From a virus, in IMG/VR virus record IMGVR_UViG_3300009519_000012: DNA of 25,745 nucleotides. The stretch is one strand, 5' to 3'. The notes under the pieces are model-generated. The model did not search any database. It was not told the DNA's origin and worked only from the letters and a program-made list of their open reading frames with translations. Position 1 is the first letter of the stretch; each line of letters starts with the position of its first letter. Shown here one piece after another: positions 2,070 through 25,745 of this stretch. Position numbers and translations under genes: made by a program.

Positions 2070-3335
2070 TTAAGCATGGAACCCGAACGCATAAGCATTC
2101 TTGTTAGGCTGGCAGCAATACAGATTCGTAGCCAACTTCAAAAATACTGCATTCATGCTAGGATTGTCGTACTGCTGCGTTTTACGAGTACCAAAGTTCC
2201 AATCTGGATTATTCGTTGTGCGCAGTTTGAATGTCGATGGGTCAAGGAAGTAAATTGCTTCCGATGGCTGAATAATCGCATTCGATGGCAAATTCGAGTT
2301 CGTTGGAGAGAAATTGATTGCCGCTCCAGTGCTGTCATAGAACTGTGGAGTCTGATATGCGATTGTTGCAGTGTTCGATCCAATACCATCCTTCAACTGC
2401 GTATTGCCTGTCGATCCTGCTGATCCATTGATCGGAATGTAATACTGAGCTACTGCTGAAGGTGCCAACGGGTCTTTGAAAATCTCTGTTCCGTTGAAGT
2501 TAATGGAACTCCAGCTTAGATTGTGGTCACTATGCTGCGTATCGCGGTAATAGGCCATAAGAGACTTCGCAATCGCCTTGAAACCAAAGACGTTTGTGAT
2601 TCCCAACTTCGGCTTACCACCCCACATTTCGCACTGAGAACTCAATTGAATCAATGTATCAAAATCAATCTGCCCAGGCCCGCTAGTTGCAGGAGAAGAC
2701 GAACTGCTACTGTAGTTTCCTTGACCACAATAGACCGGAGTCACGTTAATCGCCTTGCCAATCGCACCATTGCGTAACTGTTCGCCATAGGAAAGATAAC
2801 GGTTCCCATAAAGCGATGTGTCGATAGCGTTGTTCAGCGCTTCATCAAGGCCGTTTGATGCCTTATGACGGTCATCACTTACCGTCGAAGATGAATTCTG
2901 TCCGTGACGGAAAGCATCCATCGCAAGCATCGTATTGATGTTTTGCATCATAGCACTCATGAAGATTGAATAGAGATTAAAGATTCTCGACGGACCAGAG
3001 TTGATAACTCCGCCGTCCGGTCCCATCTCCCAATCACTATACGGGAAGTTTGATTGGTATCCCTTCTCGTAGAACTTCAGTTTGTCTGTGATCTGCTGGC
3101 GCATCAACGTAACTGTCTGCGCAGGATCGATTGCAGAACCGTTAGGAGTTCCATACAAAATCGGCTCTGTCATGCCAGCACCGCCAAGATACGGTTCTGC
3201 TACTCCAGCATGGCGAAGTTCGTCAAGAAACGGAGTCCCAACGAAAAACTCGTTCCACACAACTTCATCACGAACAGACTCTAGGTTCGCGCTGTCAACT
3301 TCAGAAAAAGTTGGATCATTCTGCACGTATGGCAT
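2070..3335 (-). CDS. Major capsid protein (HK97 fold expected)
   Basis: 421 aa, positioned after portal and scaffold; N-terminal EVVWNEFFVGTPFLDEL and C-terminal LKLATNLYCCQPNKNA resemble phage MCPs. Confidence 0.85.
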   Translation of the reverse strand: MPYVQNDPTFSEVDSANLESVRDEVVWNEFFVGTPFLDELRHAGVAEPYLGGAGMTEPILYGTPNGSAIDPAQTVTLMRQQITDKLKFYEKGYQSNFPYSDWEMGPDGGVINSGPSRIFNLYSIFMSAMMQNINTMLAMDAFRHGQNSSSTVSDDRHKASNGLDEALNNAIDTSLYGNRYLSYGEQLRNGAIGKAINVTPVYCGQGNYSSSSSSPATSGPGQIDFDTLIQLSSQCEMWGGKPKLGITNVFGFKAIAKSLMAYYRDTQHSDHNLSWSSINFNGTEIFKDPLAPSAVAQYYIPINGSAGSTGNTQLKDGIGSNTATIAYQTPQFYDSTGAAINFSPTNSNLPSNAIIQPSEAIYFLDPSTFKLRTTNNPDWNFGTRKTQQYDNPSMNAVFLKLATNLYCCQPNKNAYAFGFHA

Positions 3336-13162: not shown

Positions 13163-13330
13163 TTAAATCCCCGTGTAGTCGTTCTTACGCTTCGGCTTTT
13201 TCCACATATCCTCAAGAATAGGACACATCTCTGGCGCAGACGAATGGAGTCCTTGTTCCTTACGTGAAGTCTCACTGTAGTATGGACCACAGATACGATC
13301 ACACTCGGATTGTTTTTCTTGTTGCGTCAT
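13163..13330 (-). CDS. Hypothetical 55-aa protein MTQQEKQSECDRICGP...
   Basis: Manual translation; the start codon lies inside the 94-bp repeat. Confidence 0.55.
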   Translation of the reverse strand: MTQQEKQSECDRICGPYYSETSRKEQGLHSSAPEMCPILEDMWKKPKRKNDYTGI

Positions 13331-13414
13331 AGATTTTGTCGCATGAAACCCACTGTTTTAACGGTGGGCTGAATGCGATTTTCCTTTCGTTTGACAAAGT
13401 AACGTAAAAGATTT
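13321..13414 (+). repeat. Remnant B: 94-bp exact copy of 16298..16391 (10-bp flank plus IS200/IS605 left-end hairpin and TTGACA box)
   Basis: Base-by-base identity over 94 nt; contains TCGCAT..CCCACTGTTTTAACGGTGGG..ATGCGA. Confidence 0.92.
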
Positions 13415-15570: not shown

Positions 15571-15855
15571 CTAGAAACTGTACTCTTCCTCTTCGTCCTT
15601 GGGTTTCTGCTTGCGCTTTTTGCCCATCTCGTACTTCTTTTTTAGAGCCTCATACTTTTGTATTGTACCCTCTTGCGGAATAATCGTACCCGTTTCAATG
15701 TTCTGAATAGTCCGTCTGCTTATCCCGCAAATTTCCGCTAAAAACGTTTGAGTCAATGCGTTATCGATCCTGAACTGCCGCCACGTCTGCGCGATTGACT
15801 CCATCTCGCCCTTGACTTCTTCATCCACTATACGCTTTGTTCTCGCCATACGCAA
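15571..15855 (-). CDS. XRE-family helix-turn-helix regulator
   Basis: FRIDNALTQTFLAEICGISRRTIQNIETG is a canonical HTH_3 pattern. Confidence 0.88.
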   Translation of the reverse strand: MRMARTKRIVDEEVKGEMESIAQTWRQFRIDNALTQTFLAEICGISRRTIQNIETGTIIPQEGTIQKYEALKKKYEMGKKRKQKPKDEEEEYSF

Positions 15856-15867
15856 GCATCCTTTCTG

Positions 15868-15896
15868 TTTTTATACGCTTTGTTCTGGTTTGTCAA
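15868..15896 (-). promoter_or_regulatory. Possible promoter for the XRE gene
   Basis: TTGACA with TAAAAA at 17-nt spacing (or TATAAA at 15 nt). Confidence 0.35.
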
Positions 15897-15899
15897 GCA

Positions 15900-16307
15900 T
15901 TATTTTCTCGTGATCCCCCTTCTTGCTCTCACTAGTGCCTCTGCTACCGCATCTAGACTGTCCTCATGAAGACTGCTCAACCATTTATCTTCATCCATAA
16001 CTTTCATCACTTTTGGATGATCTCTCCACGTAACCTCTTTAGTGTGTAGAAGTTCATGAACAATAACAACTTCCAACTCTCTTCTGAAATACTCTCTATC
16101 TGTGTTCGTCCTATCGTTAGGATGACGTAGAATAATCTTCTGTCTATGACGAATAGGGCAAACCTTACAGTTTCCTAATTTATCTCCCATCTCTTCCGCA
16201 TTACTTATCACAATATCAAAATCGATATGGTCTAATCGGAGTTGCGGTTGCCAATAGGATAGATACTCCTTGGCTTGCTGGAGTTCCTTGTCTTCTAGTT
16301 GCGTCAT
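15900..16307 (-). CDS. HExxH (zincin-like) putative metallopeptidase
   Basis: ELEVVIVHELLH motif with downstream acidic residues. Confidence 0.65.
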   Translation of the reverse strand: MTQLEDKELQQAKEYLSYWQPQLRLDHIDFDIVISNAEEMGDKLGNCKVCPIRHRQKIILRHPNDRTNTDREYFRRELEVVIVHELLHTKEVTWRDHPKVMKVMDEDKWLSSLHEDSLDAVAEALVRARRGITRK

Positions 16308-16522
16308 AGATTTTGTCGCATGAAACCCACTGTTTTAACGGTGGGCTGAATGCGATTTTCCTTTCGTTTGACAAAGTAACGTAAAAGATTTACGCTTAAA
16401 AGATACGGCGGGACACGTCGGACTTTAAGCGCGTGGAGCGGATATGAGACTTGCCAGATGTTTTGGAAAGCAATCCGCGATGAAACGTGAATCCCATGAA
16501 TTTATTCGTGGGAGGATGTCAA
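16308..16522 (+). mobile_element. Remnant C: 215-bp non-autonomous IS200/IS605 mini-element (PATE-like) comprising LE hairpin, promoter, tnpB tail/omegaRNA scaffold and RE ending in TCAA
   Basis: LE hairpin at 16316-16355; TTGACA(16368)-17-TACGCT(16391); degenerate TnpB tail TAGHVG..ARG..KRESHEFIRGRMS; RE CCCATGAATTTATTCGTGGGAGGATGTCAA. Confidence 0.88.
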
Positions 16523-17166
16523 TTCTTTTCCTTTTCGATTTCCTCTTTCAATTGCTTCCAAAGAGTCTCCATGTCGATCCTCTCCTTACCCGGATACCAG
16601 CACGACGGTCCTTGCGCTTTAATAACCTTATTGAGTGCTTCTACAGCCTTCCATACTTCATCAGATAGTTCTCCATCATCCGCAAGATCGTCACACCATT
16701 CATCTCCGTCAAGTTGATGCAAGTAGTGAGGCTCTGCAATAACCACGTGCATCTCCGGCTCCTCACCGCGCTTCGTCGCCTCTTCCAACTGCCAGTACAT
16801 CTCATCTAACAGTTGATCTTTATCCCAAAAATACTTGTCCCGCGCATCATCAACTGTTGGCGTGTTGCCATCCCATTTAGCAACGGGAAGAGCGTAGTAT
16901 TTATCGCAATCTATCTTTGCTTGACATGATCGGCATCGAGTTTCTCCTTGGCGCATCACTGATCCGCAAGCGCACTTCTGATGAGTGCAACCTGACCACC
17001 TCGCCCCATGCTCACTGCTAGGATTGTCGCCGGGGTAAAATACTCCAGTACGAGACTTCCAGCCTATTTCAGAAACTTTCTTGGCAGCTTCATCGCTATT
17101 GTACATCACTACTTTTTCTTCTGACATCTGATCCTCTCCCATTATCGCACTAACCGATACTCCCAT
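16519..17166 (-). CDS. Hypothetical protein with Cys motifs (CxxxxCxC, CxxC); current stop codon contributed by element C
   Basis: 215-aa ORF; the likely start is MSEEKVV (ATGA overlap). Confidence 0.7.
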   Translation of the reverse strand: MGVSVSAIMGEDQMSEEKVVMYNSDEAAKKVSEIGWKSRTGVFYPGDNPSSEHGARWSGCTHQKCACGSVMRQGETRCRSCQAKIDCDKYYALPVAKWDGNTPTVDDARDKYFWDKDQLLDEMYWQLEEATKRGEEPEMHVVIAEPHYLHQLDGDEWCDDLADDGELSDEVWKAVEALNKVIKAQGPSCWYPGKERIDMETLWKQLKEEIEKEKN

Positions 17167-17540
17167 GCGTTTGAGTCCACAATCCTGCGCTTCTCAATCA
17201 CATGACACCCATACTCTGGCAAGCGTAAATCACGAATACGGCTCTTAACGCTGGAATCACAGACGAATACATTCTCTTTTTCTTTTATAAACGCCTGCAA
17301 CCTCCACGGAATCCACCACTCATGATTCCTCATCAGTCGCAACACAATCCCATTTAACGTTTTCCTATCGGGATCAGCAGCCTTGAAATTATACATTTCC
17401 TTGGCTTTCTGTTCCGCGTTCTCGTATCCAAAATCAACTAAGAACTCATATCCTTTGCTCTCAAGAAAATCAGCCGCACGCTTCACTTGAGAGGACACCT
17501 TCACGTTGTTTTCCTTGCACCACTGATTCAATTCGCTCAT
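17142..17540 (-). CDS. Hypothetical protein (possible winged-helix C-terminus)
   Basis: 132 aa; GGAGAGG RBS; the SVKSRIRDLR..YGCHVIEKRR...WEYRL pattern resembles small phage wHTH proteins. Confidence 0.65.
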   Translation of the reverse strand: MSELNQWCKENNVKVSSQVKRAADFLESKGYEFLVDFGYENAEQKAKEMYNFKAADPDRKTLNGIVLRLMRNHEWWIPWRLQAFIKEKENVFVCDSSVKSRIRDLRLPEYGCHVIEKRRIVDSNAWEYRLVR

Positions 17541-20675: not shown

Positions 20676-21167
20676 CTATTTTCCTACCCAAAACCGCGTT
20701 TTTTTGTATGCCGCCTTCTCAGCCAGCAACACCGCCGCCCCAGTGAAATTGATACGATTGAGTCGCCATACATCTTGTCTCATATCCGCTACACGTGCAT
20801 CTCCTATCTCAAAACTCATTCCGAATTTACCTTTGCGTATCTGCTCTACATCTTTAGGACAGTCTCTTCCGTATAGTATTCCTCGTACTACTATCCTGTT
20901 TCCTATCATCCTAGCTTTTAAGATGACTCCTATTTTCCTTTGCGCATCATGCCCCTCATTATCCATCCTCCGACATAATCCCATGCCTACAATCGATCCT
21001 AAAGCCTCTACTACGGCCTTGCGCTCCAGTAGTATTTTATGTCCTCTTGCGCCACTAGGAGCTTTATCGGAAGGCTCATCTACAAATCCTAGCACGCCAA
21101 GGAAAGGTAGCCTGTTCGGATGTTTCGGATACTTTGGTAATTCTACTGCAAAGCACTCAATTCTCAT
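20676..21167 (-). CDS. Prohead-protease-like protein (S78/DUF2213-type fold)
   Basis: GHDAQRKIG (His) and GMSFE (Ser) motifs in HK97-protease order, followed by FTGAAVL..KAAY. Confidence 0.55.
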   Translation of the reverse strand: MRIECFAVELPKYPKHPNRLPFLGVLGFVDEPSDKAPSGARGHKILLERKAVVEALGSIVGMGLCRRMDNEGHDAQRKIGVILKARMIGNRIVVRGILYGRDCPKDVEQIRKGKFGMSFEIGDARVADMRQDVWRLNRINFTGAAVLLAEKAAYKKTRFWVGK

Positions 21168-22718: not shown

Positions 22719-22872
22719 CTACCACCGCAGCACCTTCATCTCCATCAAAGTCTTTCGGTACTCACTCATTCCCAAAACATCGTCCATCCGTTCAAGAAAT
22801 TTTGACGTTACTATTCTTTTGACATCCTCCCCACGGATAAATCCGGGGGGCTTGCGCTCACTCGTCGGTCAT
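22719..22872 (-). pseudogene. Small ORF MTDE(R)IVTSKFLERMDDVLG... interrupted by remnant D
   Basis: Removing 22819..22861 restores a 36-aa open frame. Confidence 0.45.
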
Positions 22873-25690: not shown

Positions 25691-25745
25691 TTACCCCGAC
25701 CGCGACCCCGACCGCGACCCCGACCGCGACCACGACCGCGACCCC
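25691..25745 (-). CDS. 5'-partial ORF ending in Ser/Arg/Gly repeats (GSRSWSRSGSRSGSRSG*)
   Basis: The 12-bp tandem repeat translates in frame to a TAA at 25691-25693. Confidence 0.6.
   Translation of the reverse strand, partial: GSRSWSRSGSRSGSRSG
25694..25745. repeat. 12-bp tandem repeat (CCCCGACCGCGA)n, about 4 copies, truncated by the window edge
   Basis: Directly visible, with one variant unit (CCACGACCGCGA). Confidence 0.9.

Follow-up and report, generated by a model that had tools for sequence, protein, structure and literature searches.

IS608 (ISHp608) of Helicobacter pylori, the prototype of the peel-and-paste transposons, has subterminal hairpins and 4-nt guides. Its right cleavage site is TCAA, situated 10 nt 3' of the foot of the right hairpin and recognised by the four bases 5' of that foot (PMC3201880). 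The left site is some 19 nt 5' of the hairpin on that side, and insertion takes place 3' of a tetranucleotide, without target-site duplication (PMC3201880). Palindrome-associated transposable elements (PATEs), known from Haloquadratum and Geobacillus stearothermophilus, have both ends and no protein gene, are a few hundred bases long, and are presumed to be mobilised in trans. According to Meers et al., PATEs often encode omegaRNAs that need a TnpB protein from another element (PMC10055086). In the TnpB/omegaRNA layout, the RNA ends at the right boundary of the element, its guide is taken from the flank, and the transposon target is the target-adjacent motif (TAM) (PMC8612924, PMC10055086). 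Here we describe positions 16308-16522 of a phage genome that was assembled from metagenomes of peat and wetland (IMG/VR record IMGVR_UViG_3300009519_000012; the whole stretch analysed, 25,745 nt long, is called the 25.7-kb window). This 215-nt segment is very probably a non-autonomous, gene-less IS200/IS605 derivative of the PATE type, inserted 3' of TCAT in the ATGA stop/start overlap of two phage genes. Gene-less PATEs, often with omegaRNAs, have already been described, and the 215-nt element is a further example. As it stands, it is an ordinary, well-delimited mini-transposon.

Like IS608, the element has subterminal hairpins at its left and right ends, without terminal inverted repeats, together with 4-nt guides, a right site TCAA, and a position 3' of a tetranucleotide that is not duplicated. 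The left site is 18 nt from the hairpin, close to the spacing in IS608. In contrast to IS608, the left guide is GAAA instead of AAAG and the target is TCAT instead of TTAC, the hairpins of the window's family are near-perfect palindromes of another sequence, and the window copy lacks tnpA and tnpB. The element resembles the known PATEs in size and in the combination of two ends with no protein gene, and mobilisation in trans would be presumed for it as well. It differs from them in that it occupies a stop/start overlap of a phage genome, and in that one complete and one partial copy are known. The open reading frames (ORFs) overlapping the element are short (76 aa at most), and tblastn finds no TnpA or TnpB similarity inside it. 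Both strands of the full insert fold better than all 200 of 200 shuffles (z -3.6 and -3.9), and the left-end structure folded as single-stranded DNA has a z-score of -3.7. These z-scores, and the fact that both ends belong to large sequence families, confirm that the sequence features of the insert far exceed chance. An earlier note on this DNA had listed these features and read them as a miniature IS200/IS605-type element. All of the listed sequence features are present at the positions it gave, and the reading itself is borne out by homologous ends that flank tnpA and tnpB elsewhere and by the guide/cleavage pairing rule set out below.

The right end was placed by a right-hairpin scan of metagenome contigs, in which 45 distinct right ends were compared. 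Positions 16489-16522 agree with a metagenome family in as many as 33 of 34 bases, and beyond them the flanks differ at once. At L050, L084, L092, L122, and L126, where sufficient upstream sequence exists, an ORF of ~340-390 aa ends 49-89 nt before the right end, and the encoded proteins contain the Pfam domains Cas12f1-like_TNB, OrfB_IS605, or HTH_OrfB_IS605. Across the 45 right ends, the tetranucleotide 5' of the hairpin covaries with the final four bases of the element. The pairs are GAAT/TCAA (n = 19), GAAG/TCAC (n = 12), and GAAC/TCAG (n = 11). In particular, in 44 of the 45 the element's last base is the complement of the fourth base 5' of the hairpin, and the right linker is 10 nt long in 33. 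The right end in the window fits this rule: its guide is GAAT, and the 10 nt behind the hairpin end in TCAA. In addition, 16426-16522 recurs in at least three other contexts, including contigs from DNA and RNA libraries. One near-identical copy, with a 2-nt deletion, occupies positions 347-446 of a 963-nt ENA contig (L232). It is a right-end-only copy, which starts directly after the stop codon of an unrelated 85-aa gene and diverges after TCAA. In four independent contexts, the flanks diverge directly after TCAA. Since the copies of the right part found elsewhere diverge at this point, the right boundary is confirmed. Right-end-only fragments are common. The exact 20-nt right hairpin gives no match in viral contigs.

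The left hairpin motif has 67 matches in genome contigs and 19 in viral contigs, compared with about one expected by our estimate. The hairpin, outer stem, and spacing in the window agree with the left ends at these 86 places. In dozens of relatives, compensatory changes preserve the outer stem that encloses guide and hairpin, and this stem is present in the window. For a multi-copy element in one Lachnospiraceae genome, the unrelated flanks all end in TTAC, and the common sequence starts 18 nt before the hairpin. Among the left-end relatives, the tetranucleotide located 18 nt upstream can be predicted from the four bases in front of the hairpin, with the pairs AAAG/TTAC (n = 27), AAAA/TTAT (n = 8), and AAAC/TTAG (n = 4). 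The guide GAAA of the window therefore predicts TCAT 18 nt upstream. TCAT is found exactly there, and the boundary TCAT/AGATTTT falls between 16307 and 16308. The same GAAA/TCAT pair is present in an independent element (L233), at its right end. The exact 41-nt left hairpin region has no match in viral contigs. Both boundaries are thus fixed by a rule from unrelated genomes and are independent of the argument in the earlier note, which had relied on the restoration of an ATGA overlap. Its claim of an insertion 3' of TCAT without duplication is backed by the left guide/target rule (GAAA/TCAT, 18 nt).

Relatives of the window element differ in gene content. L181 and L222 encode a Y1 transposase (Pfam Y1_Tnp, E 1e-36 and 2e-34) and a divergent TnpB (NCBIfam guided_TnpB, E 3e-14 and 9e-25, below the curated cutoff). 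L191 and L219 have a left end of the same family and TnpB alone (Pfam). L049, an element of 1.35 kb, has a single long ORF between left and right hairpins of the window type. The tnpA-linked cargo proteins of L152, L181, and L222 are 504-578 aa long, have no Pfam match, and reach guided_TnpB below the cutoff only (E 3e-14 to 9e-25); they look like divergent TnpB relatives of unusual length.

The closest counterparts in layout are two gene-less mini-elements, L166 (213 nt) and L172 (435 nt), from one Deltaproteobacteria genome bin. Each of them follows TTAG and has a left end with a promoter, followed by a tnpB tail and the right end. They share the arrangement of the window: an 18-nt spacer comes first, then guide, hairpin, and promoter position, and, after ~110 nt, a second guide and hairpin with a final 10 nt that close with TCAA. 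The length of L166 is also close to the 215 nt of the window element. In contrast to the window, the target is TTAG (guide AAAC) and the promoters match the consensus at 10-11 of 12 positions. The interior of the window element has no detectable similarity to those of L166 and L172, whereas the interior of L172 contains a recognisable remnant of the TnpB TNB domain. In the same bin, L160 has a matching left end only; little downstream sequence is available for it.

The element separates two phage genes of the minus strand, a 215-aa gene upstream and a gene encoding an HExxH motif downstream (Table 1). Both genes are tightly packed, and 211 non-coding bases now lie between them. When 16308-16522 is deleted, the upstream protein on the minus strand ends in ...EKEKK, the TGA that follows shares bases with the ATG of the HExxH gene (ATGA), and an AAGGA ribosome-binding site is positioned 6 nt before that ATG. 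With the element present, the upstream protein ends in ...EKEKN, its last residue being changed from K to N. The stop codon of the 215-aa gene lies inside the element, because it is the reverse complement of 16519-16521. The former AAGGA is 215 nt away from the HExxH gene, which has no recognisable ribosome-binding site. The insertion has TCAT as its left and TTCT as its right flank, without target-site duplication. The earlier statements that the element supplies the stop of 16519..17166 and parts the HExxH gene from its ribosome-binding site thus hold. On five related viral contigs, the gene homologous to the 215-aa gene likewise forms an ATGA overlap with the next gene, and the downstream genes differ. 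Intact homologues of the HExxH gene (59-68% identity) lie close behind the preceding gene in other phages, without such an insert. The empty site proposed in the earlier note is accordingly upheld, both by the restored ATGA and AAGGA and by the ATGA overlaps at which the 215-aa homologues of related phages end. A blastn search of 15800-17300 against GenBank phages gives no match.

From the homology of the ends, the guide code, the spacings, and the boundaries, we infer a transposition event. A Y1 (HUH) TnpA supplied in trans would have inserted the element, with its top strand on the plus strand of the window, into single-stranded DNA 3' of TCAT, that is, in the ATGA overlap of the coding strand, without duplicating the target. 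The insertion would have given the upstream gene a new stop codon, one codon-change from the old one, and would have cut the HExxH gene off from its ribosome-binding site. A one-base change of the left guide (AAAG/AAAA to GAAA) moves the target of an IS200/IS605 element to TCAT. In a tightly packed genome, TCAT corresponds to the ATGA overlap, where an insertion destroys no coding sequence. The element is a natural example of the predictable retargeting that has been shown experimentally for IS608.

Table 1 Features of the element, its surroundings, and its partial copy in the window
Feature	Position	Strand	Description
Gene-less IS200/IS605-type element (probable PATE), whole	16308..16522	+	215 nt
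TCAT, left cleavage/target tetranucleotide; putative TnpB TAM	16304..16307	+	Minus strand, ATGA stop/start overlap
Left-end structure	16316..16355	+	Outer stem 16316-21/16350-55; guide GAAA 16322-16325; palindrome 16326-16345
Promoter-like site, rightward	16368..16396	+	TTGACA 16368-16373; 17 nt; TACGCT 16391-16396
Internal segment	16392..16488	+	Possible remnant of tnpB 3' end/omegaRNA scaffold; fold z -2.4
Right end	16489..16522	+	Guide GAAT 16489-92; palindrome 16493-16512; 10-nt linker; TCAA 16519-22
Right flank	16523..16538	+	Begins TTCTTTTCC; 16 nt, would-be guide; minus strand, last codons of 215-aa gene
Upstream phage gene	16519..17166	-	215 aa; stop codon from TCAA of the element
Downstream phage gene	15900..16307	-	135 aa; HExxH motif
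Copy B	13316..13414	+	Equals 16293-16391 with 1 mismatch in 99 nt; left 84 nt and 15 nt of flank; no right end

The strong structure on both strands could also be expected of an intergenic regulatory repeat or non-coding RNA of the phage itself, a cassette of hairpin and promoter that would resemble the ends of insertion sequences by chance. The recurrence of the left 84 nt upstream of a second gene start would agree with such a cassette, as would a promoter-like site on the minus strand (16551-16522) that reads into the insert. We consider this explanation highly improbable. Both ends match transposon ends in sequence, spacing, and covariation across unrelated organisms, and related phages lack the cassette at the homologous junctions. 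In addition, a scan for a terminator-like site within the insert finds none, and Rfam assigns no family, either for the whole window at the gathering threshold or for 16000-16900 at E values up to 10. The minus-strand site itself (TTGAAA, 18 nt, AAGAAT) spans the right junction and points toward the HExxH gene, and its score of 9/12 is at chance level.

Several observations weigh against a PATE inserted by transposition. The left and right hairpins are imperfect palindromes, with one T.G mismatch each, whereas the family consensus is a perfect palindrome. Neither tnpA nor tnpB is present in the 25.7-kb window. Rfam, alignment, tblastn, and phmmer reveal no measurable resemblance of the internal segment to TnpB or known omegaRNAs, and the alignments of this segment (16392-16488) to L166, L172, and element A, another IS200/IS605 fragment of this phage, are no better than those of shuffles. 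No natural empty-site allele is found among the eight fetched contigs with the HExxH gene, all eight of which, from several samples, carry an identical insert. Likewise, no joint that skips the element is found in four runs, one of them an RNA library. No complete second copy or direct parent of the 215-nt element was found either. As to the parent elements with the same ends that the earlier note had envisaged, homologous ends linked to tnpA and tnpB exist elsewhere, and L233 has the GAAA/TCAT pair. Finally, the flank shared with copy B extends 10-15 nt beyond TCAT, which a 4-nt target does not explain; this implies recombination or gene conversion besides, or instead of, a second transposition.

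The shared flank of copy B includes TCAT and the adjacent gene's first five codons. At copy B, the native start among homologues of the gene is M-T-Q/E/P, and homologues of the HExxH gene begin with M/V-T/S-E/D. Given these native starts of both gene families, part of the shared flank is convergent. The shared GCAAC is not expected by chance. The explanation that we tentatively favour is co-conversion of a short flank during recombination between the two copies, possibly from copy B to the window element. The position of the window boundary is unaffected by copy B, since it is based on the family rule. An alternative left boundary after TTCT at 16296, which would place the gene start inside the element, was considered and rejected, because the family spacing is 17-21 nt and because homologues of both genes start natively with M-T/S-x-x-E. 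Copy B itself stops just before the -10 hexamer. It extends into a small ORF of the minus strand (13486 downwards), to which it supplies the last 18 codons. In a contig from run X14, 16302-16391 is covered at a depth of 34, compared with 8-11 in the flanks. This is more than two copies would give, and it hints at further copies of the left end in the X14 sample.

The same shared flank raises the question of whether the insertion-sequence-derived segment arrived here, or copy B at its site, not through TnpA but through gene conversion or recombination, which could have involved two phage genomes or the two loci. The 15 nt of left flank common to the two, with one mismatch, would be accounted for. 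Moreover, the shared M-T-Q start is native at copy B, while homologues of the HExxH gene are acidic at position 3, which suggests co-conversion of the flank from copy B to the window element, and right-end-only fragments (L232 and pieces A and D of the window) testify to frequent rearrangement. However, both ends of the window element are complete, and its junctions fall exactly where the guide/cleavage code predicts. A clean empty site is the outcome of transposition and is not guaranteed by recombination. The flanks of copy B and of the window element are otherwise unrelated, and thus offer no homology to drive an exchange on the far side. Placement by recombination is therefore unlikely, and insertion of a PATE by transposition is the reading that we retain.

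In the earlier note, the element was credited with a promoter of its own. TTGACA-17-TACGCT is present and combines a perfect -35 hexamer with a weak -10 hexamer. The -35 hexamer is positioned 22 nt after the hairpin, which is the position of the 12/12 sigma-70 promoters in L191 and L163, and the promoters of L172 and L166 have the same offset from the hairpin. However, the site matches the consensus at 9 of 12 positions, compared with an average of ~7.8 for shuffles of the same 90 nt, and a promoter scan of the window does not list it. A promoter function of this site is therefore putative.

The part of the element that follows was described in the earlier note as a ~120-nt tail of tnpB. This description is not supported: tblastn and phmmer detect no TnpB similarity, Rfam gives no match, and the claim rests on the analogy with L166 and L172. 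When seven TnpA/TnpB proteins, a TnpB-tail fragment, and the 504-aa cargo protein are compared with the window by tblastn, the only match is the tail of element A (E 0.018). An exhaustive phmmer search with the 43-aa read-through of 16393-16521 returns one match, a spurious ORF that starts inside another copy (L232). Only the last 34 nt of the element are common to the tnpB-linked ends. A 22-nt inverted match between 16429-16450 and 20777-20798 is dismissed as chance, because it lies in an ORF without TnpB domains.

The right 100-130 nt may be, or may once have been, an omegaRNA scaffold. If transcribed, the RNA would share the layout of an ISDra2-type omegaRNA (reRNA), with a guide from 16523 onward and TCAT as the TAM, and it could start from the promoter position retained in the left end. 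In contrast to the ISDra2 type, the window has no Rfam match and no nearby TnpB. Contigs from the RNA library cover 16417-16522 only and continue into other flanks. They belong to other copies and are therefore uninformative on transcription of the copy in the window.

If the right part is transcribed, it would lend itself to testing whether a phage omegaRNA can act in trans with the TnpB of a host. In the furthest-reaching version, the phage would retain the element as a functional orphan omegaRNA gene. Its left-end promoter would produce a scaffold of ~120 nt that ends at 16522, with a guide from the flank, and this RNA would load a host TnpB and direct it to cut phage genomes with the empty site (TCAT followed by TTCTTTTCC...). 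The -35 hexamer at the family position and the intact right end with its guide/cleavage pair would suit this role, and the discussion in PMC10055086 of PATE omegaRNAs that act with TnpB supplied in trans provides a precedent. The difference between the TCAA of the donor and the TCAT of the empty site means that the element would not target itself. The identity of the insert in the eight fetched contigs from several samples would also suit the role, but it may only reflect a recent clonal phage. Against the proposal, the -10 hexamer is weak, the scaffold resembles neither an Rfam family nor other omegaRNA regions, the window encodes no TnpB, and the RNA-library contigs, being other copies, lend no transcript support. 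We regard a functional orphan omegaRNA as unlikely. Equally unlikely is its consequence, that a phage cassette without a nuclease borrows the TnpB of the host to cut the empty-site allele (TCAT and the last codons of the 215-aa gene) in co-infecting relatives, which would amount to homing by RNA alone or to the exclusion of competitors. The further right-end fragments of this phage also fit the proposal, and they could be additional guides if it were true. For the 215-nt element, a gene-less mini-transposon remains the reading that we prefer.

The phage genome gathers IS200/IS605 ends without a nuclease or transposase gene. Almost all long ORFs of the window are on the minus strand. Fragment A (1891-2069, minus orientation) is a different IS200/IS605 fragment, and the TnpB tail detected in it by tblastn reads DRDINAARNI... 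It lacks a left end; its right end terminates in ...GTAGTTCAC, immediately behind the stop of a 421-aa gene (2070..3335). A third fragment, at 22819-22861 (minus orientation), is right-end-only and ~40 nt long. It ends in ...GGAGGATGTCAA, as does the 215-nt element, and its hairpin differs. At the extreme end of the window (25693-25740), a 12-nt tandem repeat, ACCCCGACCGCG, is present in about four copies.

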